Origin: Methylococcaceae bacterium
GTDB lineage: Bacteria > Pseudomonadota > Gammaproteobacteria > Methylococcales > Methylomonadaceae
Reading direction: 5' to 3'
Assembly (NCBI GenBank): GCA_049656545.1
Contig: JBASLW010000084.1
Location: 1-50,293, forward strand
DNA: 50,293 bases
In this document: piece after piece, positions 24,830 to 50,293 of the stretch
Position numbering within the stretch: the stretch's first letter is position 1
How the letters are laid out: every line of letters begins with the position of its first letter
Translations under genes and position numbers: made by a program
The notes under the pieces: model-generated
The model's database searches: none
Seen by the model: only the letters and a program-made list of their open reading frames with translations
What the model was told of the DNA's origin: nothing

Positions 24830-26446
24830 ATGACAGAAAAGGCTGAATTTAGTTACGAACATTATTTGGAAATGAAGCACATCGTCAGCCAGTTTGAAAA
24901 ATTGACCGACATCGGCATTTCTTTATCGTCTGAACATAACACCACGGAATTATTAGAAAAAATTTTAGTTGGTGCGATTTCATTAACGAATTCGGATGGT
25001 GGCACGATTTATATGGTACATGATGATAAAACCATTAAAAGCGCGATTATTCATTCGACCAGTTTAAACATCCATCTAAAAGGCAGTAATGAAGCGATTA
25101 TTTCGGTGTCGTTATACAACGAAAATGGTGAACCGAATTTAAAAAACGTTGTCAGTTATTCATACCACAAAGATATAACGCTAAACATTCAAGATGCTTA
25201 TGACAGTGAAGCATTTGATTTTAGTGGCACAAAATTATTTGATGCAAAAAACCATTACCGTTCAACGTCTTTTCTTACCGTTCCTTTAAAAAATCACGAA
25301 TTTGAAACCGTTGGAATGCTGCAATTGATTAACGCGCTAGATGCTAAAACGGGTAATGTGATTCCTTTTGATTCTATCGCACAACGTTTTTGCGAATCAC
25401 TTGCCAGCGAAGCCGCCACCGCGTTGACAAAACAACAATTGATTATCAATTTAGAACAAATGTTTGAATCAATGATTATGTTGATTGCGAACGCGCTAGA
25501 TGAAAAATCACCTTATAACGGTGGACATTGTCGACGTGTTCCTGAATTAACCATGATGATTGCTGAAGCCGCTCATAATACAAATGACGGTTATTTAAAA
25601 GATTTTTCATTGAGTGATGCTGACCGTTATGAATTGAAAATTGCAGGACTGTTACACGATTGCGGCAAAATTACTACGCCTGAATATGTCGTCGATAAAG
25701 CAACAAAACTGGAAACAATTTTTGATCGAATTTATTTATTAGAAACCCGTTTTGAAGTGTTAAAACGTGATGCTGAAATTGCGATGTTAAAACAAAAAGT
25801 CGCCGCGTTAGAAGTAGGACAAGATCCCCAAAATGAACTTTTAGATTATTTGTTTAACGAACGGATTACCTTGATTAACCAGCATTTCGCCTTTCTCAAA
25901 GAATGTAATAAAGGTAGCGAATTTACGTCACCTGAAAAACTACAAGCTCTGCAAGATTTACAGCAAATTACATGGCAACTTAACGGCGAATCTGTTCCGT
26001 TATTAAGTGGAAATGAATTGCATAATTTGAGTATTCCTTATGGCACATTGACAGAAATTGAACGTAAAAAAATCAACAATCACATTAGCGTCACTATTTC
26101 AATGTTGAATGCGATTAAGTGGCCTAAACATCTGAAAAATGTCACCAAATATGCAGGTGGGCATCATGAACGAATGGATGGCGGCGGTTATCCAAATGGA
26201 TTAACACGCGAAGAAATGCCAATTCAAGCACGAGCGATGGCGATTGCAGACGTTTTTGAAGCCTTAACCGCTTCAGATCGTCCTTATAAACCAGGTAAAA
26301 AATTGTCTGAATCGTTGTTTATTTTAGAAAAAATGAGCAAAACAGGACACATTGACCCCGATATTTATGCAGCCTTTATTTCACACAAAATTTATAAAAA
26401 ATACGCCGAAAAATTTCTAAAAGCTGAACAAATTGATGTTGATTAA
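24830..26446 (+). CDS. GAF-domain HD-GYP c-di-GMP phosphodiesterase
   Basis: 538 aa. N-terminal GAF-like region, then HD (LLHDCGKITTP) and HHERMDGGGYPNGL (the GYP motif), with a long insert between the two halves. Confidence 0.85.
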   Translation: MTEKAEFSYEHYLEMKHIVSQFEKLTDIGISLSSEHNTTELLEKILVGAISLTNSDGGTIYMVHDDKTIKSAIIHSTSLNIHLKGSNEAIISVSLYNENGEPNLKNVVSYSYHKDITLNIQDAYDSEAFDFSGTKLFDAKNHYRSTSFLTVPLKNHEFETVGMLQLINALDAKTGNVIPFDSIAQRFCESLASEAATALTKQQLIINLEQMFESMIMLIANALDEKSPYNGGHCRRVPELTMMIAEAAHNTNDGYLKDFSLSDADRYELKIAGLLHDCGKITTPEYVVDKATKLETIFDRIYLLETRFEVLKRDAEIAMLKQKVAALEVGQDPQNELLDYLFNERITLINQHFAFLKECNKGSEFTSPEKLQALQDLQQITWQLNGESVPLLSGNELHNLSIPYGTLTEIERKKINNHISVTISMLNAIKWPKHLKNVTKYAGGHHERMDGGGYPNGLTREEMPIQARAMAIADVFEALTASDRPYKPGKKLSESLFILEKMSKTGHIDPDIYAAFISHKIYKKYAEKFLKAEQIDVD

Positions 26447-27470
26447 GTTGATGCCAATTTTTTTATTGGCATTTTTGATTGGCGTTAGTTTTTGGATGTT
26501 ACAACCTTTTGTATTAACGTTGTTGTGGGCATTTATTATTTCATTTGTTTTATTTCCACTTTACAAACGTCTTAATCAATTTATTCAAAACGATACGCTC
26601 AGTGCGTTTGTTTTCACCTCTTTTATCACGGTTGTTTTAGTTGGTTTAACCTTTGTGATATTTCATTTAATCGAAAATGAAATCAAAAACGCTTACATTT
26701 TGTTATCAAATAACGTCGTTGAATCCTCGTGGCAATTACCCGAAAAAATTAGACACATTCCGCATATTGGTGATTATTTACAAGATAATCTGAATCGGCT
26801 GAAAAATAATCATCTGTCATTGACAGCACAGTTAATGGATTGGTTAAAAAACAGTTTTGGCATATTCGCGCAATTTTTTAGCCATATTGGACAACGAGTA
26901 ATTAAATTCAGTTTTGTTTTAGTCACCGTCTTTTTTTGTTTTCGAGATGGCGAATTATGGTTACAACAACTTAAACAATTTTTGCATTATTTTTTAGGCG
27001 ATGCTTACAGTTTATATTTGCAAACCGCAAGTGATACGACTCGAGCCGTCATTTATGGTTTAGTTTTAGCCGCTTTATCACAAGGTTTTATTGCGGGAAT
27101 TGGCTATTTTGTCGCGGGTGTAAAAATGCCGTTATTGCTTGCAATGCTCACCGCGTTACTGGCGTTAATTCCGATGGGAGCGACATTGGTTTGGTTGCCG
27201 ACAGCGTTAATGTTACTTATCGACAACCAATTATTCGCAGGCATTGGTTTAATAATTTGGGGATTTTTGGCAATTAGTACCATTGACAACGTGATTCGTC
27301 CGTTAGTCATTTGCGGCGCAAGTAAAATTCCTTTTTTAGTCGTGATGTTCGGTGTATTTGGCGGTTTATCAACATTTGGCACAATTGGTTTGTTTTTAGG
27401 ACCTGTGATTCTTTCTGTTCTTTTAGCAGTTTGGAAAAATTTTATTCGTTCGCTAAATGAAACATCTTAG
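26433..27470 (+). CDS. AI-2E family transporter (PerM/YhhT, UPF0118)
   Basis: 345 aa, multi-pass membrane protein with the family C-terminal block ([31 protein letters not shown]). The start is uncertain (26433 or 26451). Confidence 0.85.
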
Positions 27471-29566
27471 TTCGTTTTAAAATTCGATACCGTAACAGAT
27501 AATTTCCGTGCTTGTTCTTCAAGCGATTCTGCCCCTGCAGCGGCTTCTTCCACTAAGGCTGCGTTTTGTTGCGTGACTTCATCCATCTGAGAAATCGCAT
27601 GATTCACTTGAGCAATCCCTGCGCTTTGTTCAACTGACGCGGCAGTAATTTCACCCATAATTGCCGTCACGCCTTGAACAGCTTGAACAATTTCTTGCAT
27701 TGTTTGACCTGCTTTTGCGACCAATTGACTGCCATCTTCAACTTTATCGACAGAATCACCAATCAACATTTTAATTTCACCCGCCGCCGCTGCCGCCCGT
27801 TGCGCTAAATTGCGAACTTCTGTCGCAACGACAGCAAAACCACGACCTTGTTCACCTGCACGCGCCGCTTCAACTGCCGCATTTAGTGCTAAGATATTGG
27901 TTTGAAAGGCAATGTTATCAATTACTGAAATAATTTCGACCACTTTGCGCGAGGATTCATTGATGCTATCCATGGTTGTCACCACATTTCCCACCACAAT
28001 GCCGCCTTGACTTGCAATTCTTGCGGCTTCACGCGCTAATTGATTGGCTTGTGTGGCATTATCAGCATTGTGTTGAACGGTTCCTGTTAATTCGGTCATG
28101 CTCGCGGCTGTTTCTTCTAAACTTGTCGCTTGTTTTTCAGTTCGTTGCGACAAATCATTATTTCCCGCTGCAATTTCTTGTGCAGCAGTGTTAATTTGCA
28201 AAGTAGAATCTTTAATTTCACCCACTAAGGCTTGTAAATTTTCGACAGTGCAATTGATTCCTTCGACAACTTTACCAAACGTGCCAGGGTAATTTTGGGT
28301 AATTTTTTGCGTTAAATTACCTTGAGCAAGCGACGTTGAAACACGCAAAATATCATTGAACCCCGTGTCGCACGTTGTGAGTAATTTATTTAAATCACTC
28401 AGCATATCGCGGAACATAAATTCAAAATCATCGGCATTGGCACGTTTTGAAAAATCACCCTCTAAGCCCGCTTTCGCTAAAATTTCAATTTCATTACTAA
28501 TTAAAAACAAGGCTTTTTTAATACCGCTCATTGCTTCCGTAATTATTCGTGTTTCACCTGGTAATTCTTCCATATCAAGCGAAAAATCGCCTTTTGCATA
28601 TTGAGCAACGATTTCAATAATTCTACGATTTATGCTAACGCGCGATTGAATTAAATCGTTCATTTGTTGAGCAATACGTTGATAAGTCCCTGAAAATTTA
28701 GAGACATCTACCATCACTTTTGGATAGCCCTTTTTATGTTGCTCTGCCATCATATCTTGTGCTTCAACAAAAGAATTCAACGCATTTTGCATCATGTTCA
28801 TTGAACGTAATAAATCGCCAATTTCATCGATTTGTGAAATATCAATTTTTGAACTCAAATCTCCCATTGCGATTGCATTGGCAATTTGTTGAGAAGATTT
28901 TAACGAACGCAAAATGCCTCGACTAATCAACCAAGTAACAATCGATGCTAAAACGATACTAAAACTGAAAATAGCCAGTAATCCAATATCAAAACTACCA
29001 ATTAAATTTTTAGCGTGTTCTTCATCTTTTGCATTACGTTTCGTTGTTTTTGCAACGACTTCATCAATCGCAGCACGGTGTTTTTCATAACTGGCTTTTA
29101 TTTTTGCCAAACTCGTTTCAACAGCCGCAGAATTGCCTGCTTGAACACTGGGAATAAAATTTTGTTGTGCTTCGTTATAAAAATCTTCGGCAGCGTGATA
29201 AGAATTTTCTAATAACAATGTTTTCAATTCAGGTTCAAGCGATTCATTTTGCCAATAAGTGTGACGTGTATCGTATTCACCTTTTAACACTTGAAAACGA
29301 TTAGCTAATGCTGAAATCTCATCTGGATTTGTAACGTGTGTAAGTTGTAAAACCACCAAATAGGATTCAAGAATATATTCAGGTGGCGGCAAAATATCGG
29401 CAATTAAATCTTTGCCTTGGACAATACGTTGATAAATAGGACCATTTACGTTGAGCGTACTCATTGCTTTCAATGTGGCAATACCAAAAAGCGTAAAGCC
29501 AATAATTAAAATACTTAAAATAATGCCAAACCTGGCTTTAATCGTAAATGAAGAGAATTTGTTCAT
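27467..29566 (-). CDS. Transmembrane methyl-accepting chemotaxis protein with periplasmic helical sensor and several HAMP-like repeats
   Basis: Canonical signalling tip ([37 protein letters not shown]) and two TM segments. The ATG at 29566 (MNKFSSF, with AGGA 8 nt upstream) is preferred over the ORF-track start at 29596. No C-terminal pentapeptide. Confidence 0.9.
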
Positions 29567-29618
29567 AATTTTTGTCCTAAAATTTTTACCGCGCATTTGT
29601 CACAAACTATATCTTGTA

Positions 29619-31878: not shown

Positions 31879-32946
31879 ATGACGGAAGAACACCTTACTC
31901 TGCACACAACGGACATACTCATCGTCGATGACACTTTGCCAAATTTACAATTGTTGACTTCAATTCTTAGAGAAGAAGGTTATAAAGTCCGCCCTGCCAG
32001 TTCAGGCGCGTTGGCGTTACAAGCCATTGCCAAAAAATTACCCGATTTAATTTTACTCGACATCAAAATGCCTGGTTTTGATGGTTATGAAGTGTGCGAA
32101 ACCTTAAAAAATAATCCTGAAACCAAAGATATTCCCATTATTTTTATCAGCGCGTTAAGTGATATTAGCGACAAAATAAAAGCCTTTAACGTTGGTGGTG
32201 TGGATTACATTAACAAACCGTTTCAATTTGAAGAAGTCAGAGCGCGTGTAGCAACCCATTTAAAACTGCAAGCCTATCAACGAGAAATGGCAAGTCGTGT
32301 CGCCGAAGCGGTTGAAGAAATCCACGTTTTAAATCAAGAAATTATTGATACGCAACGCGAATTGATTTTTACAATGGGTGAAATTTGCGAAACCCGTTCA
32401 CAAGAAACAGGTTTGCACGTTAAGCGTGTGGCGGAGTATTCCTACTTACTAGCAAAATTATCGGGCGTTGATGAAAGTATTGCGTCAATGATTAGACAAG
32501 CCTCACCGATGCACGATATTGGAAAGGTAGCGATTTCAGACGAAATTTTGCATAAAAATGGAAAATTAACACCAGAAGAATGGGAAATTATGAAAACACA
32601 TTCGACGTTAGGGCATTCTATGTTGTCAGTTTCAAATCGACCATTGCTACAAATGGCGGCAACTATCGCGCTAGAACATCATGAACGATGGGATGGGAAA
32701 GGGTATCCAAATGGGGCGAAAGGTGAAAATATCAGTCTAGCTGGTCGAATTACAGCCATTGCAGATGTGTTTGATGCCTTGGGTTCAATGCGTTGTTACA
32801 AAAATGCGTGGGAATTACCCGAAATTTTGACTTTTTTCAAAGAAGGACGAGGTAAACATTTTGATCCCAGATTATTAGATTTATTTTTTGACCATTTGAA
32901 CGAATTTTTAATCATTCGAGATGAATTTAAATGTAAAGAATGCTGA
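31879..32946 (+). CDS. Response regulator with HD-GYP output (RpfG family c-di-GMP phosphodiesterase)
   Basis: 355 aa. REC domain (ILIVDD, LLDIKMPGFDG) plus HD-GYP (MHDIGKVAI, HHERWDGKGYPNG). Confidence 0.9.
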   Translation: MTEEHLTLHTTDILIVDDTLPNLQLLTSILREEGYKVRPASSGALALQAIAKKLPDLILLDIKMPGFDGYEVCETLKNNPETKDIPIIFISALSDISDKIKAFNVGGVDYINKPFQFEEVRARVATHLKLQAYQREMASRVAEAVEEIHVLNQEIIDTQRELIFTMGEICETRSQETGLHVKRVAEYSYLLAKLSGVDESIASMIRQASPMHDIGKVAISDEILHKNGKLTPEEWEIMKTHSTLGHSMLSVSNRPLLQMAATIALEHHERWDGKGYPNGAKGENISLAGRITAIADVFDALGSMRCYKNAWELPEILTFFKEGRGKHFDPRLLDLFFDHLNEFLIIRDEFKCKEC

Positions 32947-37124: not shown

Positions 37125-39041
37125 ATGAAAAAATCTGTTGGTTATTATTTCCCCCATTCACTTAAAGCACGTTTAATTATTCTGACGTTATTGTTTTTAC
37201 TTTTACCGACAGGAATTTTAGGTTATCTCGGTTACGATTATTTATATAACACCATTAAAAACAATAACATTCGCGCTGTTGGACACATTGCAGATTCACG
37301 TCATGAACAACTTAACGTGATGCTTCAAAATACAAATAATCGAGCAACCCATTTTCTTGAAAATCTTTCTTTGCAATGTGAATCGGGAAATAAGCGAAAA
37401 ATCAATGATTGTTTAAAACAGGCGTTACAACTTTTTCTGAATAATGAACAAGCGTTAAGTGCCATTTTTACGAATGCAAATGGCGAAAAAATTAAAGTTG
37501 GTGATACGTTTTTATCTGAAATTTTGCCTTTCAAATCAAAACAATTAGTTGGCTTTAGTGCGCCTGAAAAAAATACACCCCGTTTATATTACATCGTCAT
37601 CCAAAATGAAAAAGGTGAACATTTAATCGTCACGTTTCCCATTCTTGAAATTCAAAAAATTTTTATCAGCGACCCCAGTTTAGGCGAATCGGGCGACGTT
37701 TTTATTATGGATTCGGAAGGTTTTTTTATTACGCAACCGCATTTACTTGATACCGATAGTCCGCAAGAAGCCAAAAATGACCACGCAATGCACCATTGTT
37801 TAATGATGGGTAACGCTGAAATGCTTGATGTGGATAGGCGAAATGTCGAAATTATTCACAGTTTTCGATTTGTCCCTGAAGTTGGTGGCGGTTGCATCAT
37901 GGCACATTTAGATCAAGCAGAAGCCTTTTCGGCGTTAGATATTCTGCAATGGCGTGTCATTTGGATTACGTTAGGGTTGATTATTTTTGCTTTGATTCTC
38001 GCGCTAATTGTTGGACGAAATATCGTCAAACCAATAGAAAAACTTTGCGCGGTGACACATCAAATTATTAACGGCAACTACACAATTTCAGCCGTTGTTG
38101 CTGGAGATGACGAAATTGCTGAATTAGCAAATGCGTTTAATTTAATGACAGAACGTTTGAAATGCGCGTTTGATGAATTAAATGCCCATCGCGCTCAACT
38201 TGAACATAAAGTTCAAAAACGCACCGCTGAATTATCAATTGCAAAGGATGAAGCAGAGCAATCGTTAATGTTATTGCAACAAACCAAAGAAAATTTAGTT
38301 CAAGCCGAAAAAATGGCAGCATTAGGTGGTTTGGTTGCGGGAATTTCGCACGAAATCAATACACCGATTGGCATTACAGTTACGTCCGCTTCATTTTTAA
38401 ATGTAGAAACGAACAAAGTCATTGAACTTTATCAAGAGGGAGAATTGGGCGGTGACGAATTAGAATTCTATTTTGAAACCGCCAAACAATCCACAGAATT
38501 GATGATGATAAATTGCCAACGTGCAGCAGATTTGATTCACAGTTTTAAACAAATTTCTGTTGATCAAACTAGCGATAATTTGCGTGAATTTAATTTGAAA
38601 AATTATCTGGAAGAAATTTTATTAAGTTTGCGTCCTGCGCTTAAAAAAACACGGATTAACGTTGAATTAAATTGTTTACCAAGTTTATTTGTTTTTGGTT
38701 ATCCAGGTGCGATTTCGCAAATTGTGACCAATTTTGTCATGAATTCTTTGTTTCATGCCTACGAACCGAATCAAATCGGCACGATTAAATTAAATGTTAC
38801 GCTGTTTTCAGCACACAAAATTGAGTTGTGTTATAGCGATGACGGAAAAGGAATTCGACACGATATTCAAAATAAAATTTTTGACCCTTTTTTCACGACA
38901 CAACGCGGTAATGGCGGCAGCGGTTTAGGGCTTCATGTTGTGTATAACCTTGTGCATCAAGTGTTAAAAGGCTCACTGCAAATCGACAGCATTGAAGGTA
39001 AAGGTACTACTTTTATTGTTAATTTTCCAAAACGAATGTAA
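37125..39041 (+). CDS. Sensor histidine kinase (periplasmic Cache-like domain, HAMP, DHp, HATPase)
   Basis: 638 aa, two TM segments, HAMP (DEIAELANAFNLM), H-box GISHEINTPIG, and N/G boxes (NSLFHA, GSGLGLH). Confidence 0.85.
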   Translation: MKKSVGYYFPHSLKARLIILTLLFLLLPTGILGYLGYDYLYNTIKNNNIRAVGHIADSRHEQLNVMLQNTNNRATHFLENLSLQCESGNKRKINDCLKQALQLFLNNEQALSAIFTNANGEKIKVGDTFLSEILPFKSKQLVGFSAPEKNTPRLYYIVIQNEKGEHLIVTFPILEIQKIFISDPSLGESGDVFIMDSEGFFITQPHLLDTDSPQEAKNDHAMHHCLMMGNAEMLDVDRRNVEIIHSFRFVPEVGGGCIMAHLDQAEAFSALDILQWRVIWITLGLIIFALILALIVGRNIVKPIEKLCAVTHQIINGNYTISAVVAGDDEIAELANAFNLMTERLKCAFDELNAHRAQLEHKVQKRTAELSIAKDEAEQSLMLLQQTKENLVQAEKMAALGGLVAGISHEINTPIGITVTSASFLNVETNKVIELYQEGELGGDELEFYFETAKQSTELMMINCQRAADLIHSFKQISVDQTSDNLREFNLKNYLEEILLSLRPALKKTRINVELNCLPSLFVFGYPGAISQIVTNFVMNSLFHAYEPNQIGTIKLNVTLFSAHKIELCYSDDGKGIRHDIQNKIFDPFFTTQRGNGGSGLGLHVVYNLVHQVLKGSLQIDSIEGKGTTFIVNFPKRM

Positions 39042-39056
39042 AAAAATCTCAACACA

Positions 39057-40535
39057 ATGACTGAAAAAAAACCGCTTAACTTAAAAACTCAAAATACATT
39101 TTCATCTAAATTAACCACAACGTCTCATGCTATACCGTGGCGAATTTTAGTTGTCGATGATGAAGAAGATGTTCATTCCGTGACGCGCTTAATTTTGACA
39201 AAAATTGCGTTTAAAAATCGTCCTGTTGAATTATTGTGTGCTTATTCTGCGTTTGAAGCGCGTGACATTTTGGCGCGTGAAAAAAATATCGCGGTGATTT
39301 TGCTTGATGTCGTGATGGAAACCGATGATGCGGGATTGCGACTGGTTAAAATTATTCGTGATGATTTACATAATCATGAAGTTCGGATTATTTTGCGAAC
39401 AGGACAACCAGGACAAGCTCCCGAAGAGCGCGTGATTGTTGATTACGATATTAACGATTACAAAGCGAAAAACGAATTAACCTCGCAAAAATTATTTACC
39501 GCTGTGATTTCTGCATTACGCGCTTATGAAACCATTATGTCGCTCAATAAAACACGACGCGGGTTAGAGAAAATTCTGCACAGTTCAGATTCTCTTTTTA
39601 AAATTCAATCGATGCACGAATTTGCATCGGGAATTTTGGCGCAATTAAGTTTATTTTTGGATTGTCAACCGCAAGGCATTATTTGTATTGAACAAAATAG
39701 AGATGGCGATGTTGAACCGATTTCCTGTTTGCCAAACAACATGAAAATTATTGCGGTAACAGAAGAATTTGAATGTTGTTTGCGTTGTCATTTAGACCAT
39801 TCGTGTGGACATGACGAAATTGCCAACATGATTAAAACCGCGTTATACGAACGAAAAAATCAATTTAGTGAGCAATACTCCGCCTTTTATTTAGACACTA
39901 ATGACGATAAAGCGACCATTGCGTTGGTGTATAGCGAAAAAGAAATTGAAAAACACGATTTGGATTTACTTGAAGTTTTCACGTCAAAAATTTCGATTGC
40001 GTTAGCTAACGCGATTCATTATCAAAAAATGGTTACCTTTGAAAAAGCGGCTGTGACCGATTTTTTAACGAATTTGAATAATCGTCGTCAGTTGTTACGT
40101 TTAGGTTTGCCGATGTTAGCATTGGCAAATCGCAATAATCGATTAGCAGTCGCCATGATTGACATCGATTTGTTTAAACAAGTGAATGATTTATATGGTC
40201 ATGATGTTGGCGATATTGTGTTGAAACACATTAGCAAAATGATGGGTGAGCGTTTTCGTAGTTGTGATGTGGTGGCGCGTTATGGTGGTGAAGAATTTTG
40301 CATTCTTGCGCCGTCATTGAATTCACCACAATTAGCCTTTGAATTATTTGATAATTTTCGAATATCGTTAGCAAATTCAGACATTCAAATTTCAGAAACA
40401 CAAACGTTGAAAATTACAGTCAGTATCGGTGTAACAACCGATTTATGTCCCAATTTAGACGATATGATTACAGCCGCTGATTATTTGTTGTACAAAGCGA
40501 AAAATAAAGGGCGAAATTGCGTAATGGTAAAATAA
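39057..40535 (+). CDS. Response regulator REC-(DUF3369-like linker)-GGDEF diguanylate cyclase
   Basis: 492 aa. REC ([36 protein letters not shown]), then a GGDEF domain with an RYGGEEF active site and an RSCD I-site. Confidence 0.9.
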
Positions 40536-42573: not shown

Positions 42574-42601
42574 ACCGCCTGATGATGACTCATCAGGCGG
42601 T
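42574..42601. terminator. Intrinsic terminator closing the chemosensory operon (minus strand; also usable from plus)
   Basis: ACCGCCTGATGA-TGAC-TCATCAGGCGGT, a 12-bp perfect stem. On the minus strand it is followed by TTTTCTTTTTT. Confidence 0.65.
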
Positions 42602-42657: not shown

Positions 42658-43386
42658 CTAAACACCTGTACCAACTTGTAACGAATCAAACCAATCTAAG
42701 AAGCGTTTTACATCGTCACCTTTAAACATCCGTCCATGTTGAGGAGCTAAAATATCAATATCTAAATTTCTAACACGGTCAATCCAAGCACGTTTTGCTT
42801 GATTTGATGGCATCATACGTTGATGGTAATAACGCATTTTTTCAACGTGAACATCAAAACGTTCTACGAAAACAGGCGCACCTGCATTTTCAAATGCAGA
42901 ACCGACACTGCCACACATCAAAATTTTCGCAACAGGATCATAAACATGAAAACCACAAGGCGAATGTAAATAATGAGCAGGAATCAATTGCAATTCAACC
43001 GCTTCAATTTTAATCGTTTCGCCATTATCTGGAATTGGCACATATTCAATTGATTCACAACCGAAATGTCTAATGTAACCTTCCCACAACGCAGGCGCGT
43101 GTAATCTCGCATTTGATAAGGCTTGATCCCACAAACCTAACGATGAAATCACGTCAGGGTCTTGATGCGAAGCAAATAAATCGGTGATTTGTTCAACAGG
43201 TGCATGATGCAAAACAGCTGCCATCATCGGCGCAAATAACTCTGTACCACCTGGCTCAAGTAATAAACATTTATTCGCTGTGCGAACAATATATTGATTA
43301 CTATCAATAATGTTATCGGGTTTATTTTCGTCGCGCCCAAACATCACCCATTGATGCGCTCCTTCGTAAATTTTAGTCATTTTCAT
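42658..43386 (-). CDS. ODP-like protein: stand-alone flavodiiron-type metallo-beta-lactamase-fold domain
   Basis: 242 aa, collinear with the N-terminal MBL domain of flavodiiron proteins (QYIV....LLLEPGG, ASHQDPDV at the HxExDH position, IPAHYLHSP, LMCGSVGSAF, RYYHQRMMP, APQHGRMF). No flavodoxin domain. Strong RBS (AGAGGAG). Last gene of the che operon. Confidence 0.6.
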   Translation of the reverse strand: MKMTKIYEGAHQWVMFGRDENKPDNIIDSNQYIVRTANKCLLLEPGGTELFAPMMAAVLHHAPVEQITDLFASHQDPDVISSLGLWDQALSNARLHAPALWEGYIRHFGCESIEYVPIPDNGETIKIEAVELQLIPAHYLHSPCGFHVYDPVAKILMCGSVGSAFENAGAPVFVERFDVHVEKMRYYHQRMMPSNQAKRAWIDRVRNLDIDILAPQHGRMFKGDDVKRFLDWFDSLQVGTGV

Positions 43387-43404
43387 GAAAATGCTGCTCC
43401 TCTT

Positions 43405-44019
43405 TTAACTATTGCGATAAATGGATAATGCGATTCGGCAACGTTGCACATTATCATGAATGGTATGTGCGGCTTTATCGACACTTTCGGCGACCGCTTG
43501 CAAACTTTGCAAATACTCACCTGCTTGCGATGCTTCAATGCGAGAGTTTGCCGCAATAACACGGGCAGCTCTGGCATGGTGCATCACCGCTTCGAGTTGC
43601 CCCAACAATTGTGTAACATCACGTTTAAATTGACGTTGACAATCTTGCATAATGGTTCGTGCATGTGTAATCGGTTCTTGCATTGAATCCGCATAACGTG
43701 CGCCAACGGCTAATTTTCCAACTTGTTCAAAGCGGTTGTAAGCGGCGGTACGTCTGTATTCATTCACGGTTAAACGGTACAAAAGTAACGCATAAACGTT
43801 GATATTGGTGACTAATTCAATGGTTTCTTTTGCTAATTCGTTAATAAAATCGGTAATCGGTTGAAAGCCTTTCGCTTTATCACCTGCGCGAAACGCAATG
43901 GCTTTTGCATTTGCAGCGGCTAACGAAATTTCTTTTGCCACGACCATAACGGCACTCAACTCCGACGTAATCGAAGCGACCGCGATAAATTGTGATTTTG
44001 TCTGACTGTTCATAATCAT
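43405..44019 (-). CDS. Small soluble MCP-signalling-domain-like protein with two hairpin-tip-like motifs
   Basis: 204 aa with no TM segment. Residues 30-66 (EISLAAANAKAIAFRAGDKAKGFQPITDFINELAKET) and 153-184 (RVIAANSRIEASQAGEYLQSLQAVAESVDKAA) both align to the MCP tip consensus [31 protein letters not shown]. Confidence 0.6.
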   Translation of the reverse strand: MIMNSQTKSQFIAVASITSELSAVMVVAKEISLAAANAKAIAFRAGDKAKGFQPITDFINELAKETIELVTNINVYALLLYRLTVNEYRRTAAYNRFEQVGKLAVGARYADSMQEPITHARTIMQDCQRQFKRDVTQLLGQLEAVMHHARAARVIAANSRIEASQAGEYLQSLQAVAESVDKAAHTIHDNVQRCRIALSIYRNS

Positions 44020-44075
44020 AAGGTCTCTATTCGCCTGAAAAATAATAGCGTTGATATTGAAAAAAACGAGCCGTT

Positions 44076-45149
44076 TTAGCGCAATCCTGTTTTAACTAAT
44101 GCCAAAACTTTCTCGGCAATATCATCTAATGGCACAACATAATCCGCGCAACCCAATTTAAAGGCAGCACCAGGCATTCCCCAAACAACACTCGACGCTT
44201 CATCTTGTACAATAGTTTTTGCACCCGATTCTTTCATTGCTTGCATCCCAATTGCGCCATCTGCTCCCATTCCTGTTAGCAAAACGCATACCGCATTTGA
44301 ACCTGTACATTTTGCAGCGGAATGAAACAACACATCAACAGAAGGTTTATGTCGATTAACAGGCGCACCGTCTTGTAATTGAATAATGTACTGGTTGTTG
44401 TTTCGTATCACTTCCATGTGTTGATCGCCAGGTGCAAGATAGATATTGCCCCATTCAACAACCTGTCCATGAGTCGGAATACTGGCAGTCATATCGGTCG
44501 CTGCGTCAATATGTTTAACAAATGAATCACTAAATGCCGCTGGTAAATGTTGTGTAATCAAAATGGGCGGACAATCTGCTGGCAGTGTTTTAACAACCAC
44601 TTTAATCGCTTCTGTACCACCTGTGGACGAACCGAGTACGATAATTTTATTAAATCCTGTCGCATTTCGTGCCGCAATCATGCGTTTAATTGCCAACGTT
44701 TCTTGCGAATGCTGCGCGGCTTCGCCATGACCTTGAAGCGTTTTTAAATTTGTGCGTGACGCAATGCGAACTTTTGAAATAATTTCAGCCGTGTAATCAG
44801 CTAATCCTGTTTCAGTGTTACCTTTGGGTTTTGCTAAAAAATCCACTGCCCCAATCGCCAACGCTTCAAGTGTTGCTTCTGCACCGCGTTCTGTTAGCGT
44901 CGAAATCATGACAACAGGCGTTGGACGCAAGCGCATTAAATTTCGTAAAAACGTAATGCCATCCATTTGCGGCATTTCAATATCGAGTGTTAATACATCA
45001 GGATTGAGTTGTTTAATCATTTCCCGAGCAATTAGCGGATTTTCAGCCGCACCAACCACTTCAATATCGTCAGCGGTTTCTAATATACTCGTTAAAATTT
45101 TGCGGACTAACAATGAATCATCAATAATCAATACACGGATTTTATTCAT
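44076..45149 (-). CDS. cheB: Chemotaxis response regulator protein-glutamate methylesterase CheB
   Basis: 357 aa. REC (VLIIDDS, LTLDIEMPQMDG) plus an esterase domain (GSSTGGTEA, the HMEV region, LTGMGADG). Confidence 0.95.
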   Translation of the reverse strand: MNKIRVLIIDDSLLVRKILTSILETADDIEVVGAAENPLIAREMIKQLNPDVLTLDIEMPQMDGITFLRNLMRLRPTPVVMISTLTERGAEATLEALAIGAVDFLAKPKGNTETGLADYTAEIISKVRIASRTNLKTLQGHGEAAQHSQETLAIKRMIAARNATGFNKIIVLGSSTGGTEAIKVVVKTLPADCPPILITQHLPAAFSDSFVKHIDAATDMTASIPTHGQVVEWGNIYLAPGDQHMEVIRNNNQYIIQLQDGAPVNRHKPSVDVLFHSAAKCTGSNAVCVLLTGMGADGAIGMQAMKESGAKTIVQDEASSVVWGMPGAAFKLGCADYVVPLDDIAEKVLALVKTGLR

Positions 45150-45161
45150 GTTTGGCTCGAC

Positions 45162-45797
45162 TTAAAATAACTCAACATCGCCTTCAACAGGCAACTCTTT
45201 AATGTTTCTGGAGTATTGACGTTCCCGTTGAGCAATAGTGTCATTGTGTAAATCTTGAATTTTTTTCATACCGACTTTGCCCGTTTTAGGAAAATAAATC
45301 ACTTTTCGTGGATAAATATCTCCTAAATCTTTGGACAATAACGCTAACCCTTCTTGGTCGATGTAATCCAAAACAAAACTGATATTTCGTTCTCCCACAT
45401 CGCTTAACGTCGGAATAATTTTTCCACCACCAAACACTTTGACTTCTAAATTTTTACGTTTTCCACCATTTGACAAAATGGTGTTAATTAAATGTTCCAT
45501 CGCGTAATTGCCGTAACGTGTAGCATTACCAATCATCGCGTCACTACCTTGGCGCATTTTTTCCGCGTACGTTTCAGGCAACATAAAATGATTCATACCA
45601 CCAATACCTGTTTCTTTATCTCGAATACAGGCTGCAATACACGAACCTAACACGGTGGTAATTAACTCATTTTGAGTTGTAACGTAGTATTCGCCTGGCA
45701 AAATCTTGGCGGCAATAACGCCATGATCTTGATCTAAATAACGATTCACATGGTCAAAACCTTGAACCGAGGGTCTGTCAATTTGATTGCGATCCAT
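45162..45797 (-). CDS. cheD: Chemoreceptor glutamine deamidase CheD
   Basis: 211 aa with TVLGSCIAACIRD, GIGGMNHFMLPE and VKVFGGG. Confidence 0.9.
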   Translation of the reverse strand: MDRNQIDRPSVQGFDHVNRYLDQDHGVIAAKILPGEYYVTTQNELITTVLGSCIAACIRDKETGIGGMNHFMLPETYAEKMRQGSDAMIGNATRYGNYAMEHLINTILSNGGKRKNLEVKVFGGGKIIPTLSDVGERNISFVLDYIDQEGLALLSKDLGDIYPRKVIYFPKTGKVGMKKIQDLHNDTIAQRERQYSRNIKELPVEGDVELF

Positions 45798-45803
45798 TTT
45801 ATT

Positions 45804-46640
45804 TTATATATTTTTTCTATAACTGGTGGTTGCCACTAATTCAAACTCGCTTGAAAGCTGATTCAAGGACTCTGAATGTCCAATAAATAACCAAGATTTA
45901 CTCACCAACAGTTTAGCATAACGTTTTGCAAGCGCAGCTTTAGTTTCGCGGTCAAAATAGATCAATACATTACGACAAAAAATTACATCAAATGGCGTAG
46001 TCATTGACCATTCCTGCATCAAATTAAGTTGCCGAAACTGAATGATTTCTTGCAATTGCGGTTTAACTTTAACGTATTCAGGTGATGATTTACTTTTCAT
46101 AAACCAACGTTTTAAAACAGACGTTGGTAATTCAGCAATTCTGTCTTGAGCATAAATGCCTTCTGAAGCCGTTTGTAAAACTTGCGTATCTAAATCGGTC
46201 GCTAAAATTTTAACATCCCAATCTGACGGGACATTTTCAAGCATCGTCATTGCGATAGAATAAGGTTCTTCACCTGTTGAACAACCCGCAGACCAAATCC
46301 GAATTTGTTTTGTTGCCGCATTACGTTTTAACAATTCAGGAATGACAACTTCACGCAAATAATCAAAATGGTGCATTTCACGGAAAAATGACGTGAGATT
46401 TGTCGTAATTGCGTTAATAAAATCGGTAAATTCCTCTTCATGATTGCTTTGCAAATAATCGCAATACTCTGAAAAGTCGTTTAACCCCAAACGGCGTACT
46501 CGTTTTGAAAGACGTGAATAAAACATATCAAAACGTTCGTCTGGTACTTGAATTCCTGAATGGGAATTCGACAATTTTCTTAAAACGTTAAAGTCTTCGA
46601 CGGTAAATTTAAATTCACGCTCTTTTTCTACAATAGCCAT
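45804..46640 (-). CDS. cheR: Chemotaxis protein methyltransferase CheR
   Basis: 278 aa with TNLTSFFRE, IRIWSAGCSTGEEPYSIAM and IFCRNVLIYFD. Confidence 0.93.
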   Translation of the reverse strand: MAIVEKEREFKFTVEDFNVLRKLSNSHSGIQVPDERFDMFYSRLSKRVRRLGLNDFSEYCDYLQSNHEEEFTDFINAITTNLTSFFREMHHFDYLREVVIPELLKRNAATKQIRIWSAGCSTGEEPYSIAMTMLENVPSDWDVKILATDLDTQVLQTASEGIYAQDRIAELPTSVLKRWFMKSKSSPEYVKVKPQLQEIIQFRQLNLMQEWSMTTPFDVIFCRNVLIYFDRETKAALAKRYAKLLVSKSWLFIGHSESLNQLSSEFELVATTSYRKNI

Positions 46641-46668
46641 TTACGCCCGCCCCTAACTTGCGACACCA

Positions 46669-47388
46669 CTACTCAGATATTTCAAGCACTGATAATAAAT
46701 CCAATAATTTAGCGGATTCAATAAATCGCGCTGATGGATAAATAATGTTGATAGTTTTGCCTAAATTTGGTGCATCTTTTTTTAGAGAAACTAACATTTG
46801 AAATGTGGCGGTATCAATGGTTGTGACATCTGAAGCGTTAATTTCAATTGTATCGTGAGCTGCCAACGTTTTTTTGAATGTTTCATGAAGTTCAGCAATC
46901 GTTTTCAAACTGGCTTCACTTCCTAATTCCACTAACGGTTCAATGAATGCGTCAATGATTTCTTCTTCAATAACAGTTTCTTCAGGCATCGCGTCACTCT
47001 CAGTCTGGGCTTCTTCGGTTTGTTCGCTAATTTCCTCAACAAGAGCATCTAAAACTGCGTTTTCCGTTTGCGATTCAGTGTTTTCGGATGCAACATCAAT
47101 TTGAATTGCTACGTTTTCGTTTGCTTCAATCGTAATTTCAATTTCGCCGTTTTCATCAATGCTTACGTCAATTTCAACTTCTTCATCAACAATTTCGTCT
47201 GTTTTTTCCAACACAACGGGCAATTCTTCAGGTGTTTCTGCTACGTTTTCAGTTTCTTCAATAACAGGCGCGGTTTTCGATTTCGCTTTTGCTCGCACCT
47301 TTTTTACTGGCGCAACAGGAACGTCGTCAATCGTTTCGCCATCCATCCATGCTAAAGGATCGTAACCAATTAAATTATTTGTTGTCAT
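46669..47388 (-). CDS. Highly acidic protein with N-terminal basic peptide and C-terminal STAS (anti-sigma-antagonist-like) domain
   Basis: 239 aa. N-terminus LIGYDPLAWM then VKKVRAKAKSK, a Glu/Asp-rich linker of about 120 aa, and a C-terminal region of about 90 aa with a STAS-like pattern (LKTIAELHETFKK...IEINASDVTTIDTATFQMLVSL). The start overlaps the parA-like stop by 14 nt. Confidence 0.55.
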   Translation of the reverse strand: MTTNNLIGYDPLAWMDGETIDDVPVAPVKKVRAKAKSKTAPVIEETENVAETPEELPVVLEKTDEIVDEEVEIDVSIDENGEIEITIEANENVAIQIDVASENTESQTENAVLDALVEEISEQTEEAQTESDAMPEETVIEEEIIDAFIEPLVELGSEASLKTIAELHETFKKTLAAHDTIEINASDVTTIDTATFQMLVSLKKDAPNLGKTINIIYPSARFIESAKLLDLLSVLEISE

Positions 47389-48148
47389 TGTTCATTACTC
47401 TATTTTCAAGAAAATCATTGGCAAGGTTGCGGAAATCTCGTGCAGAACGGCTTTTAGGACTGTATTCCAAAATCGTTTGCCCAAAACTAGGACATTCGGC
47501 AAGCAAGGCAGTTTCACGAATGACGGTCGCTAAAACCTGATTCGGGAAATGTGACAATAAAATGTTTAATACCTGATCTGAAATTCGGCGTGTCGAAATA
47601 AACCGAGAAATCACCACGGACAATTTATATTGTCTTTTCAACGCCCCTTCAAAGCGTTTCACTGTCGCCATTAAATGCGATAAACCTTGCAACGATAAGA
47701 AATCACTCGCCATTGGTACTAAAATTTCATGCGTGGCAATTAACGCATTTGCGACAAGTAAGCCAGACGATGGTGGACAATCAATAAAGATAAAATCTTG
47801 ATCGACAAGTTGTCCTTTTAACGCATCACGCAACAAAACGCCTCTCGGTGTTCCGTTATTACTCATTTGTTCAACATCTTTGAGCTTTGAACCTGCGGGA
47901 ATCAATTGCAAATTCTCACGCACTTTTATTGTGACATCTTCAACCGTTTTTTCTTTAAGCATTGCTAAGTCAATGCCCTGAAGATCGTGAGAAATAACAC
48001 CAAATGAAACGGCTAAATGTCCTTGCGGGTCAAAATCAATCACCGTTACTTTTTTGCCTAATTCCGCTAATGCGTGACACAAATTCGCCGTCGTCGTCGT
48101 TTTACCTACGCCGCCTTTTTGATTGATAATGGCAATTAAACGTGTCAT
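47375..48148 (-). CDS. ParA/MinD-family ATPase embedded in the che operon (ParC/PpfA-like)
   Basis: 257 aa with the deviant Walker A (INQKGGVGKTTT), IIDCPPS-type Walker B (FIFIDCPPS) and a ParA-like C-terminus. Confidence 0.85.
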   Translation of the reverse strand: MTRLIAIINQKGGVGKTTTTANLCHALAELGKKVTVIDFDPQGHLAVSFGVISHDLQGIDLAMLKEKTVEDVTIKVRENLQLIPAGSKLKDVEQMSNNGTPRGVLLRDALKGQLVDQDFIFIDCPPSSGLLVANALIATHEILVPMASDFLSLQGLSHLMATVKRFEGALKRQYKLSVVISRFISTRRISDQVLNILLSHFPNQVLATVIRETALLAECPSFGQTILEYSPKSRSARDFRNLANDFLENRVMNNDNK

Positions 48149-48150
48149 GT

Positions 48151-48681
48151 CTACAAGTCTTCAGCTTCAGCAAAATCTGAAATAGCTTCCATGTCATCAA
48201 CTTCATCTGGATTGAGAAGTTTATCGACATCAAGCAACATAATCATATTTTGTTTATAAACGTGCATTCCTCGCATATAACGAGTGTCAAGTTGCGAACC
48301 AAAATTTGGGGCTTTTTTGATTTCATTCGTTTTAATATCAAGTACATCCGATACCGCATCTGCCACAATTCCCATGACAAATGTATCAGTACGATGATGT
48401 TTAATACATAAAACAATAACAACCGTTTTGTGTGTATATTCGCAATGTTCAAGTGAAAAACGTTCGCGCAAATCGACAATTGGAATCACAGAGCCACGCA
48501 AATTCAAAACGCCTTTGATAAAAGAAGGGGCATTAGGAATAACACGAACAGCTTCCCACCCTCTGATTTCTTGTACTTTTAAAATTTCCACGCCATAGAC
48601 TTCGTTAGCGAGTTCAAACGTTAAAAATTGTTCGATTTGTTTAGGATCTATTTGTTTATTTGAATCAGTTGTCATGGTCAT
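48151..48681 (-). CDS. cheW: Chemotaxis coupling protein CheW
   Basis: 176 aa with FLTFELANEVYGVEILKVQEI and GVLNLRGSVIPIVDLR. Confidence 0.93.
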   Translation of the reverse strand: MTMTTDSNKQIDPKQIEQFLTFELANEVYGVEILKVQEIRGWEAVRVIPNAPSFIKGVLNLRGSVIPIVDLRERFSLEHCEYTHKTVVIVLCIKHHRTDTFVMGIVADAVSDVLDIKTNEIKKAPNFGSQLDTRYMRGMHVYKQNMIMLLDVDKLLNPDEVDDMEAISDFAEAEDL

Positions 48682-48720
48682 TCCCAGCGGATTATTTTGA
48701 TTTAACAGTTACAGATTTTA

Positions 48721-50293
48721 TTAAAATTCTTCCCAATCATCACCAATACTGTTCACCGATGAAGTAACTGGTTTTGAAACGATGGATTTATTTGATTGTG
48801 ATGCGTTTGCCGCAGGTTTTGAAGCCATTACTTGATGTCGTGCTGAACCCGATTTTTTGCCAACACTAAAGAAATCAAGCAATTTTGTCATTCTCGCTGA
48901 TTGATCACTCATTGCCATACTACCTGCGGCGGCTTCTTCGGCTAATGCAGCATTTTGTTGGGTAATGTCGTCCATTTGTGCAATAGCTTGATTGACTTGA
49001 TTGATTCCCGCCGATTGTTCACTACTTGATAACGTAATATGTCCAACAATATCGCCCACTTTGGCAATACTATCGACAATTTCCATTAACGCTGCCCCTG
49101 TTTCATTTACAAATGCCGTGCCAGAACGCACTTTTTGAACACTATTTTGAATTAGCTCGCTACTTTGTGCGGCAGCATTCGCGCTACGTTGTGCTAAATT
49201 TCTGACTTCTGTTGCAACAACTGAAAAACCACGACCTTGTTCACCTGCTCTCGCGGCTTCAACGGACGCATTTAATGCTAACAAATTTGTTTGGAACGCA
49301 ATTTCATCAATCACACCAATAATTTCGGCAATTTTATTACTACTTTCATTGATTTCTTGCATCGCCATGATTGCTGAACGAACAACGTCACCACCTTTTT
49401 CAGCCAATTGTGTTGCTGATTGAACCACTTTTGTCGCTTGATTTGTATTTTCAGCATTACTTTTTACCGCACTCGACAATTCGTGCATACTCGCGGCGGT
49501 TTCTTCTAAACTTGCCGCTTGTTGTTCAACACGATGTGACAAATTGTTGTTACCACTTGCCATTTCTTGTGACGAATTATTGACAAATGCCGCCGCTTCA
49601 TGAATCTGAACAATCAACTCGCTAATTTTACTCATTGTGTTATTGATATTTTCTTTACATTCAGCGTAAGTACCTTGGTAATCGGCTTGTATAGAATCCG
49701 TTAAATCACCATTCGACATTTTTTCGACAACGCGATTGATTTCACTAAACGCATTCTCAATCACGTCTGTTAATTCATTGATGTTAATCGATAAGGCTTT
49801 AGCAAAACCCTCTTTGCCAACTAAATTGATTCTCGCATTAAGCTGACCCACTTTGATTGAATTCACCAAGTTTTGGATTTCATATTCAATTTGCGTTTCT
49901 TGAGTTCTATCAAGCCATTCTGCAACATACCCAATTCGCTCACCATTGTTTGTAATAACAGGTGTTGCAATCACTTGCATCACATGACCTGCCAACTTAA
50001 TTTCTATCGTTGCAGACGATTGCAAATTAAAAAGCAAATCTCGCTGATAAGTCGGATTTTTATGGAATATACTAAAATTTGTGCCTAACAATTGTGCGGC
50101 TTTAAAATTAGGTAATTCTTTTCTAATGTCATTTTCAGCGTTGATAAATAAATTTTTTGCCGCCTTATTGATATAAATAACTTCTAAATTTGAATTTGCA
50201 ATTAAAACGCTAGATTGAACGTTTTCTAAACCACTGATAATTCGTATCGAATCCGCTGTTGCTTGGCGCGAAGCACCTAAATCGCCACCTAAT
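48721..50293 (-). CDS. Aer2/McpB-like soluble chemoreceptor (PAS-heme, di-HAMP, MCP signalling domain, C-terminal DWEEF), 5' end outside window
   Basis: I translated the frame manually and it stays open to the window edge (...[49 protein letters not shown]...AEWLDRTQE). This matches the P. aeruginosa Aer2 PAS as I remember it, including the FHKNP His and a Trp exactly 49 residues later. Canonical tip [26 protein letters not shown]. Ends GDDWEEF. Confidence 0.85.

Follow-up and report, generated by a model that had tools for sequence, protein, structure and literature searches.

Introduction

The stage-1 F7 chemosensory systems of Vibrio cholerae (cluster III) and Methylomicrobium alcaliphilum, as described by Ortega et al. 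2020 (PMC7184735), are encoded in the order anti-sigma-factor antagonist, cheY, cheA, two cheW genes, an aer2-like receptor gene, cheR, cheD and cheB, ending with an mcpA-like receptor gene, another anti-sigma-factor antagonist plus a Ser phosphatase. Che2 of Pseudomonas aeruginosa is a system of the same class at stage 2. Elsewhere, chemoreceptor arrays are positioned by ParA-like ATPases, for which only two types of array partner are known: ParP, a CheW-like protein (F6 systems of Vibrio, Pseudomonas and Halothiobacillus), and TlpT, a receptor (Rhodobacter sphaeroides cytoplasmic cluster). A third kind of system consists of a small receptor without sensor or transmembrane parts coupled to an ODP, a member of the oxygen-binding di-iron protein family (TDE2496 with the ODP TDE2498 in Treponema denticola, TM14 with an ODP in T. 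maritima). Here, we analyse nine genes at positions 42658-50293, minus strand, of a 50,293-nucleotide stretch of contig JBASLW010000084.1 (the whole stretch being called the window), in which an F7 stage-1 core, a candidate ParA-type positioning pair and an ODP-receptor pair, all of kinds already known, are found within one chemotaxis operon.

The window holds the 3' two-thirds of an operon with the order cheY, hpt, cheA, cheW, aer/aer2 receptor, cheW, parA-like, STAS, cheR, cheD, cheB, mini-receptor and ODP. The operon has in common with F7 stage 1 the gene order, an Aer2-type 36H heme-PAS receptor and an xWEEF tether (PMC7184735). It differs in the addition of parA and a STAS gene between cheW and cheR and of a mini-receptor (mini-MCP, for methyl-accepting chemotaxis protein) and an ODP gene after cheB, in the lack of an McpA-like receptor, flanking anti-sigma antagonists and a Ser phosphatase in the cluster, and in the Aer-type flavin adenine dinucleotide (FAD)-PAS and membrane hairpin of its receptor. 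Neither ParA nor ODP is mentioned by Ortega et al. 2020 (PMC7184735).

The explanation that we favour, and regard as rather likely from the comparison of sequences, is that of a stage-1 F7 operon in which a ParA-like ATPase positions the arrays through a peptide on a STAS adaptor and the mini-MCP relays the state of the ODP. In the proposed mechanism, the Aer/Aer2 hybrid receptor would build tall, membrane-associated arrays with CheA and two CheW proteins, with adaptation through CheR, CheB and CheD, and the ParA-like ATPase would position or segregate these F7 arrays. The peptide LIGYDPLAWM of the STAS protein would dock on the ATPase dimer and be followed by a disordered acidic linker and by a STAS domain binding an array component, a tripartite adaptor logic resembling that of ParP; in other lineages, the peptide would be fused to a receptor, in a manner comparable to TlpT/PpfA. 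The mini-receptor would mimic the tip of a receptor dimer within a single chain, plug into the CheA/CheW baseplate and relay the O2 or Fe(II) state of its dedicated partner, the ODP, as TDE2496 does with the ODP of T. denticola.

Two broader propositions extend beyond this operon, and to the two taken jointly we would give about even chances. The first is that the peptide is a dedicated dock for an array-ParA clade of Aer2/F7 systems, lying within approximately the first 20 residues, often with a Lys-rich patch behind it, and having moved between the STAS adaptor and the receptor. The second is that a widespread family of pseudo-dimers of about 205 residues, invisible to Pfam and bearing two non-equivalent tips, is an obligate ODP partner in Proteobacteria and Myxococcota.

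The F7 core and its main receptor

Pfam and NCBIfam identify CheB, CheD, CheR and CheW in the window, as well as an MCP containing HAMP_2 and MCPsignal domains. A first-pass annotation, made from the window sequence, had presumed cheA and cheY to lie upstream of position 50293, and extension of the contig located both of them there. A CheW identical to that of the window is present on four metagenome contigs, one of which, 22.5 kb in length, carries two flagellin genes and genes for a REC protein (149 amino acids, aa), an Hpt protein (128 aa), CheA (697 aa), CheW (172 aa) and an MCP (776 aa) upstream of the window end, and then continues with the genes of the window and with the downstream neighbours shared with it (a 148-aa gene, GatA and REC-GGDEF). 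The full order of the core is cheY-cheA-cheW-aer2-cheW-...-cheR-cheD-cheB. The Hpt-only gene upstream of cheA (L001:241-627; 128 aa) encodes a paralogue of CheA-P1 in which the phospho-His is kept; it is restricted to the clade of the window, the Methylobacter clade having instead an extra REC gene (139 aa) between cheD and cheB.

The window contains only the 3' part of the receptor gene (48721-50293; 523 codons and the stop codon), which is cut by the window end at residue 254 and is open in frame from 50292 to the C-terminal DDWEEF. The full-length receptor of 776 aa consists of an Aer-like FAD-PAS, a hydrophobic hairpin, an Aer2-type heme-PAS, HAMP domains, a 36H signalling domain and DWEEF. 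Its N-terminal PAS, which lies outside the window, matches the FAD-PAS of Escherichia coli Aer (8dik, 2e-35), and a hydrophobic stretch at residues ~158-205 resembles the membrane hairpin of Aer. The second PAS (residues 269-385, 49897-50247) matches PDB 3vol, the PAS-HAMP unit of P. aeruginosa Aer2 (PaAer2), at 1.4e-46, with about 50% identity to the PaAer2 PAS. In this alignment, the His of FHKNP and the Trp of EW are kept; these we take to be the heme ligand and the O2-stabilising residue, respectively, as is known for PaAer2. The NCBIfam profile Aer2_vibrio matches the receptor at 2.8e-136, which is below its cutoff. Alignment of the signalling domain with E. coli Tar pairs 321 residues with 321, without net change in length, which points to the 36H type. 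The C-terminal pentapeptide DWEEF (48724-48738) is a CheR/CheB tether of the type found in Aer2/McpB (GWEEF); the McpB/Aer2 pentapeptide is recognised by CheB2 (PMC7698151).

The remaining core genes of the window are the second cheW of the cluster (48151-48681; 176 aa; Pfam CheW), cheR (45804-46640; 278 aa; Pfam and NCBIfam), cheD (45162-45797; 211 aa; Pfam, and NCBIfam NF010013 above cutoff) and cheB (44076-45149; 357 aa; REC and methylesterase domains; Pfam, and NCBIfam NF001965 above cutoff). M. alcaliphilum (MEALZ_2869-2879) and Methylomonas methanica (Metme_2151) were assigned to F7 stage 1 by Ortega et al. 2020, with the M. methanica CheY Metme_2151 included in their stage-1 trees (PMC7184735), and the cluster of M. 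methanica MC09 (L075) is orthologous to that of the window (67% identity for CheA, 70-71% for CheW and 61% for ParA). Neither in the window nor on the 22.5-kb contig was an McpA-like receptor, an anti-sigma antagonist or a Ser phosphatase found around the cluster; such flanks occur in Methylomonas relatives, and an upstream STAS gene is also present in L198. Judged by its sequences and gene order, the core is an F7 stage-1 Aer2-type system. The Aer2/Che2-F7-type layout recognised in the first-pass annotation is thus borne out by the 3vol-like heme-PAS, the 36H domain, DWEEF and the gene order, all of which agree.

The cytoplasmic array proposed in the same annotation fared less well. By cryo-electron tomography, the F7 arrays of M. 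alcaliphilum, for which the same receptor architecture is described, are tall (35 nm) and membrane-associated (PMC7184735). Because of these images and of the Aer-like membrane hairpin in the full receptor, "cytoplasmic array" is not the most fitting description, and an array free in the cytoplasm is unlikely. The proposal of two O2 inputs, a heme-PAS and an ODP, is supported, and a third input, the Aer-type FAD-PAS at the N-terminus of the receptor, lies outside the window. The system would integrate up to three O2 or redox sensors (FAD-PAS, heme-PAS and ODP) into one pathway, which would suit life at the methane-oxygen interface, a niche of opposing methane and oxygen gradients.

Conservation and independence of the added gene pairs

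A scan of one genome per species yielded 69 loci, all from Methylococcales (Methylobacter, Methylovulum, Methylomonas, Methyloglobulus, Methylomagnum and 'Ca. Methylomicrobium oryzae'). All homologues of the STAS protein bearing a source name likewise came from Methylococcales, and the operon is that of a Methylococcales methanotroph. Gene order in the 69 loci was obtained by phmmer mapping of the operon proteins onto the open reading frames (ORFs) of each locus. The dominant order was CheY-[Hpt]-CheA-CheW-MCP-CheW-ParA-STAS-CheR-CheD-[REC139]-CheB-miniMCP-ODP, and all four extra genes were present in 53 of the 69 loci, most of the others being cut by contig ends. The first-pass annotation had considered these four genes to be non-canonical and yet linked to che; the objection that they lack conserved linkage fails, because they recur with che genes across the 69 genome loci, to which about 75 metagenome loci can be added. 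Between the window and Methylobacter, the highest levels of conservation in the operon were those of the mini-MCP (88% identity) and the ODP (81%), whereas the main receptor reached 59% and the STAS protein 46%.

The two pairs do not always occur together. M. methanica and a related metagenome-assembled genome (MAG) have ParA and STAS genes and lack the mini-MCP and the ODP, their cheB being followed by the canonical McpA-like MCP, 401 aa long, and by a second, separate STAS gene of 99 aa, and other Methylomonas have an McpA-like MCP and a REC-PP2C-HATPase_c_2 protein, followed by the mini-MCP and ODP. Conversely, in Glaciecola and in a Myxococcales MAG, the mini-MCP and ODP pair is present without any che cluster. 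As each pair occurs without the other, we conclude from these gene contents that ParA+STAS and mini-MCP+ODP are independent acquisitions rather than one design. The two additional modules of the first-pass annotation are therefore both real and conserved, whereas their interpretation as a joint design does not hold. Reduced clusters were also observed: in L051 (Methyloglobulus morosus KoM1), L054/L055, L059 and L063, neither the Aer2-like MCP nor the second cheW, parA or cheR is present, and L059 and L063 carry a second, divergent cheW-MCP-cheR-cheD set downstream.

The ParA-like ATPase and the predicted docking peptide of the STAS protein

The parA-like gene (47375-48148) encodes a ParA/MinD-family ATPase of 257 aa (Pfam AAA_31, 4.6e-43). 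The deviant Walker A (NQKGGVGKTT), Walker A' (DPQ) and Walker B (IDCPPS) motifs are invariant in 60 orthologues, in contrast to the C-terminus (...ENRVMNNDNK), which is not conserved. The nearest solved structures, similar over the full length, are 8ray (6e-42), which is ParA of M. xanthus (PMC12462528), and Soj of T. thermophilus (1wcv, 6e-37). In more than 130 loci, which represent at least two deep lineages, the gene keeps the same place between cheW and the gene for the partner.

The start of the STAS gene (46669-47388) lies within the end of parA, so that the two genes share 14 nt (ATGACAACAAATAA), an overlap kept in almost every locus; the encoded protein has 239 aa. An alignment of its homologues revealed an invariant N-terminus, MTTNNLIGYDPLAWM, with the consensus (I/M)G(Y/F)DPLAW(M/L); in the window, the corresponding short linear motif, LIGYDPLAWM, spans residues 6-15 (47344-47373) and is predicted to dock on ParA. 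Behind this peptide lie a Lys-rich, basic patch (in the clade of the window), a variable acidic linker and a conserved C-terminal STAS domain (residues 150-239, 46672-46941; STAS_2, PF13466, 6.8e-10). In the AlphaFold2 (AF2) prediction, residues 1-67 are disordered, whereas the STAS domain is folded with confidence, at a predicted local distance difference test (pLDDT) value of ~90 or more. A small beta-hairpin (EIDVSIDENGEIEITIE, pLDDT ~77) was also predicted within the otherwise disordered acidic linker at residues 72-88, and is kept in the clade of the window.

The motif G(Y/F)DPLAW(M/L) follows the presence of parA closely. It was present in all of the approximately 58 Methylococcales loci with parA and absent from all of the parA-less loci L051, L054/55, L059 and L071, in which the STAS protein has a reduced length of 102-135 aa; a decayed version of the motif, LIDYDHLAGI, is found in L063, where parA has also been lost. 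When metagenome contigs were scanned for exact matches to GYDPLAWM, 117 stretches were returned, and the results given here cover 80 of the 117. Fifty of these loci were of the STAS type, and in about 24 the motif was instead found at residues 8-17 of a receptor of 835-982 aa, which comprises, in this order, the peptide, a Lys-rich patch, one globin and three Aer2-type heme-PAS domains, HAMP, the signalling domain and SEWEEF. The gene for this large receptor lies directly after a parA-like gene in clusters of the order (STAS)-cheY-cheA-cheW-parA-MCP-cheR-cheD-cheB. A parA-like gene preceded every one of the 69 ORFs with an N-terminal motif and sufficient upstream sequence (48 STAS carriers, 19 globin/heme-PAS Aer2-like MCPs of 835-982 aa and two cut by contig ends), and was not found beside the four ORFs with an internal motif, which are presumably chance matches. 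F7-like loci with one cheW, a parA-like gene and this large receptor, which is soluble, were L085, L091, L096, L107, L110, L124, L132, L137, L150, L157 and L198.

As a rule, the partners of A/D ATPases rely on an N-terminal peptide (PMC10241942). In ParP, a linker joins the ParC-binding N-terminus to a CheW-like AIF domain, and the N-terminal domain, when fused to CheA-P5, still localises arrays (PMC5706961); the partner of PpfA is the receptor TlpT (PMC6829392). The motif is most likely a portable ParA-docking peptide obeying the logic of ParC/ParP and PpfA/TlpT: its docking on the ATPase is predicted because it covaries with parA, recurs on receptors encoded after parA and has these precedents. 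From the same comparisons we infer that the ATPase is linked to the F7 array through the STAS protein, acting as an adaptor. As in the ParC/ParP systems, the ParA-like gene lies inside the che operon and overlaps a downstream partner gene, and the partner is predicted to bind the ATPase with its N-terminal region and the array with its C-terminal domain, a long disordered linker lying between the two. Unlike ParP, however, this partner ends in a STAS domain rather than a CheW-like AIF domain, its linker is acidic rather than proline-rich, and the system is of class F7 rather than F6. The resemblance to PpfA/TlpT is closest in relatives such as L085 and L132, which carry the peptide on an Aer2-like receptor; in the window, by contrast, the peptide is on a separate STAS adaptor and the arrays are probably membrane-associated.

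The covariation of the docking peptide with parA strongly suggests the ParA-type positioning role that had been proposed in the first-pass annotation. Two observations weigh against it. The residue aligned with R189 of Soj is Leu in the ATPase of the window and Ala in distant relatives; in Soj, R189 is required for non-specific DNA binding. PpfA uses binding to nucleoid DNA, whereas the ATPase of the window is without this canonical Arg. Furthermore, no membrane-targeting helix was identified in the ATPase, no formal test for amphipathic helices having been made. A chromosomal ParA/Soj reading was rejected on account of the fixed che context and of the missing DNA-binding Arg. The same missing Arg, together with the finding that the best NCBIfam match of the ATPase is BcsQ, albeit below cutoff, might indicate an ATPase unrelated to array positioning, such as a BcsQ/MinD-like assembly factor or the relic of a mobile element. 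We consider this very improbable, given the fixed position beside cheW and the partner gene, the invariant ATPase motifs, the presence of the partner peptide on array proteins and a divergence in step with CheA (51% versus 55% identity): in the clusters with a receptor-borne peptide, the ATPases are 42-51% identical to that of the window and the CheA proteins 52-55%. Mobile-element genes, moreover, were not seen nearby, either within the window or on the 22.5-kb contig.

The STAS domain itself may be read differently. In structural comparisons with Foldseek, it matched SpoIIAA, RsbV, TM1442 and MlaB with template modelling (TM) scores of 0.6-0.72, whereas no STAS protein was retrieved when PDB sequences were searched with a profile of the STAS alignment. 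An invariant DTAT lies at the start of the helix on which SpoIIAA bears its phospho-Ser, an equivalence based on structural position only. The domain also persists in some loci without parA, which weighs against an exclusively adaptor function; because of this persistence, it must have another role, possibly in partner switching. The protein could, then, be mainly an anti-sigma-factor antagonist with a partner-switching output, comparable to the modules that control RpoS in the F7 systems of Shewanella and Vibrio, its adjacency to ParA being incidental or regulatory. The SpoIIAA- and RsbV-like fold, the DTAT, the survival of the domain after the loss of parA, the anti-sigma antagonists and Ser phosphatase that flank F7 stage 1 (PMC7184735) and the REC-PP2C-HATPase_c_2 protein in the same cluster of Methylomonas loci are all in keeping with such a role. 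M. methanica, however, has an additional, separate 99-aa STAS gene in the canonical downstream position, neither the window nor the 22.5-kb contig yielded a PP2C or an anti-sigma kinase, and the strict covariation of peptide and parA and the presence of the peptide on receptors are left unexplained. We therefore hold a mainly anti-sigma function to be unlikely, the two roles of the STAS protein not being mutually exclusive.

If the adaptor interpretation is correct, STAS proteins would constitute the third type of array-ParA partner, and the transplantable docking peptide would be a clean specificity determinant of interest for the ParA/MinD field. The placement and inheritance of F7 arrays in Vibrio are an open question (PMC7534058), to which ParA+STAS would offer an answer. 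We found no description in the literature of ParA in F7 clusters or of a chemotaxis pair of ParA-like and STAS proteins, and a full-text search with 'YDPLAW' found no relevant literature on the GYDPLAWM docking peptide or its placement on receptors; earlier mention of either is possible.

The mini-receptor and its predicted ODP partner

The mini-receptor ORF (43405-44019) comprises 204 codons, but its homologues begin at a Met two codons further in (44013), giving a protein of 202 aa. Its match to MCPsignal (PF00015) is sub-threshold (1.3e-4, 22.3 bits versus a cutoff of 34.6), and its best sequence match in the PDB is the soluble T. maritima receptor TM14. The double tip recognised in the first-pass annotation was confirmed: an in-register alignment relates the two halves of the protein to each other (28% identity, E 4e-7), both of them match the canonical MCP tip as found in the 776-aa receptor and match TM14 as well, and a hairpin-tip motif of the type N..A...RAGE..G.GF occurs twice, both copies being kept family-wide. 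In 24 homologues, the blocks centred on the tips (residues 9-66 and 127-192) are nearly invariant and the middle is variable. HAMP, a methylation/adaptation region and a C-terminal pentapeptide are lacking, the helices are ~35-56 residues long and the C-terminus reads ...SIYRNS.

The AF2 model (pLDDT 84.7, predicted TM score 0.73) has four helices (residues 3-47, 51-101, 109-164 and 166-200) connected by two tight turns and one loop, and its best structural neighbours are compact single-chain four-helix bundles of ~195 aa (TM score up to 0.56). The predicted up-down-up-down topology would place both tips at one end. On the basis of this model, the mini-receptor is probably a single-chain four-helix pseudo-dimer of MCP tips with two non-equivalent 'subunits', with a domain-swapped dimer as the alternative that may apply instead of the monomeric pseudo-dimer, a point to be set against our interpretation. 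As in DosM of V. cholerae (VC1403, F9 cytoplasmic arrays), two MCP tips are present in one polypeptide. DosM, however, is a long rod with one tip per end that staples two baseplates (PMC7534058), whereas the mini-MCP has ~200 aa and both tips predicted at the same end; a DosM-like mini-receptor was rejected on grounds of size and of this predicted topology of a compact bundle. TDE2496 and TM14 share with the mini-receptor its small size and the absence of sensor and transmembrane parts, and are homodimers of hairpins, unlike the duplicated chain of 202 aa predicted to form a single-chain bundle and scoring below the MCPsignal threshold.

An exhaustive profile search of 1.84 billion representatives, with clustering at 50% identity, recovered 293 clusters at E <= 1e-3, of which 200 were at E <= 1e-10. 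Among the best 150 clusters, 132 had a length of 190-260 aa, mostly with end-to-end profile matches, and the named members came from Glaciecola, a Myxococcales MAG and a gammaproteobacterial MAG. The profile-profile comparison of the two halves across the family gave an E value of 1.1e-4. In all five distant members checked, an ODP gene lay immediately downstream (gaps of 18-31 nt or a 4-nt overlap); these five were usually located outside che clusters, and none had a Pfam match. In the Myxococcales MAG (L077), two tandem 209-aa genes precede the ODP gene, the second encoding a member of the mini-MCP family, and in L080 an 894-aa PAS/HAMP MCP is encoded directly upstream of a mini-MCP and ODP pair, outside a che cluster. 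Muok et al. 2019 reported the arrangement of an MCP gene next to ODP, according to the citations of that work in PMC7319448 and PMC7666581. We found no description of the single-chain, two-tip, ODP-linked architecture or of the breadth of the family; earlier mention is possible.

The ODP gene (42658-43386; 242 aa) encodes a protein matching PF19583 (3.8e-63, 213 bits versus a cutoff of 27.2) and the solved ODPs 6qrq (6.7e-58) and 6qnm (5.9e-49). The motifs HQDPD, AH..H and PQHG are kept. At residue 160, however, [ST]GD reads CGS, Ser replacing the Asp that is kept in both solved ODPs and in three distant ODPs; the window ODP differs in this respect from those of the T. denticola and T. maritima pairs. 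Of 55 Methylococcales orthologues, 19 have Ser at this position, every one of them from the clade of the window, and the 36 others have Asp. We take this Asp to be a probable metal ligand, by analogy with di-iron proteins of the metallo-beta-lactamase fold and flavodiiron proteins; if it is one, the metal site of the window clade differs. To judge from its sequence, the metal or O2 chemistry of the ODP in this clade may be different, a point that counts against our interpretation.

The mini-receptor could also be silent, a cap or decoy competing for CheA/CheW or trimer contacts, or a scaffold for an ODP that acts elsewhere. Such a function would accord with its short helices and with the lack of a methylation region, HAMP and pentapeptide, with the location of most mini-MCP and ODP pairs outside che clusters, and with the observation that no place for the ODP could be found in the array density of T. 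denticola, where its action may be peripheral (PMC7666581). On the other hand, the conservation of the two tip blocks is extreme, as in functional receptor tips, and TDE2496, which lacks sensor and membrane parts, nonetheless modulates CheA activity (PMC7666581). The reduced Methyloglobulus cluster (L051), moreover, keeps CheA, CheW, CheD and CheB and has no cheR, with the mini-MCP as its sole receptor; this gene content fits a mini-MCP that signals but is not methylated. A silent mini-receptor consequently seems doubtful, and we retain the relay of the ODP state as the preferred function.

If this relay is correct, the family would extend ODP sensing well beyond spirochetes and Thermotoga. 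Chemoreceptor censuses under-count mini-receptors, because current profile libraries miss the family. As a minimal and, by prediction, naturally asymmetric receptor tip, the mini-receptor would lend itself to structural work on core signalling units, and the asymmetric dimer could reveal which subunit contacts CheA/CheW and which makes the trimer contacts.

The probable transcription unit and neighbouring genes

The nine ORFs of the operon in the window all have the same direction. The recomputed intergenic distances (39, 2, -14, 28, 6, 12, 56 and 18 nt) match exactly the tight packing reported in the first-pass annotation, with gaps of no more than 56 nt and one 14-nt overlap. An intrinsic terminator at 42574-42601 (minus strand), with an 11-bp GC-rich stem and a T-run behind it, was absent from the output of a simple terminator scan, but direct folding revealed the strong hairpin that had been annotated there (-31.6 kcal/mol, z = -7.3). 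Other terminator-like (8 versus 8.1 expected) and promoter-like (19 versus 23.3) matches in the region were at chance level. The hairpin is located between the ODP gene and a convergent plus-strand gene of 148 aa ending at 42547, and because of this position between convergent genes it probably ends transcription from both directions. From the spacing and the single terminator only, we infer that the nine genes are co-transcribed as part of one long operon, a limit that counts against the favoured explanation.

Probable cyclic di-GMP and two-component genes flank the che operon on the plus strand, at 24830-26446, 31879-32946, 37125-39041 and 39057-40535; their products are a GAF and HD_5 (HD-GYP-type) protein, a REC and HD_5 protein, a dCache/HAMP histidine kinase and a REC-DUF3369-GGDEF protein. 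The remaining genes of the window (ruvABC, tolQRA-like genes, RecQ, lipopolysaccharide genes and cyclic di-GMP enzymes) are unrelated housekeeping and signalling genes. A second chemoreceptor of 709 aa, with two transmembrane segments and no C-terminal pentapeptide, is encoded at 27467-29596 on the minus strand; its poly-HAMP chain (HAMP, McpB_HAMP_2, HAMP_N3 and HAMP_2) resembles the N-terminal part of P. aeruginosa Aer2/McpB.

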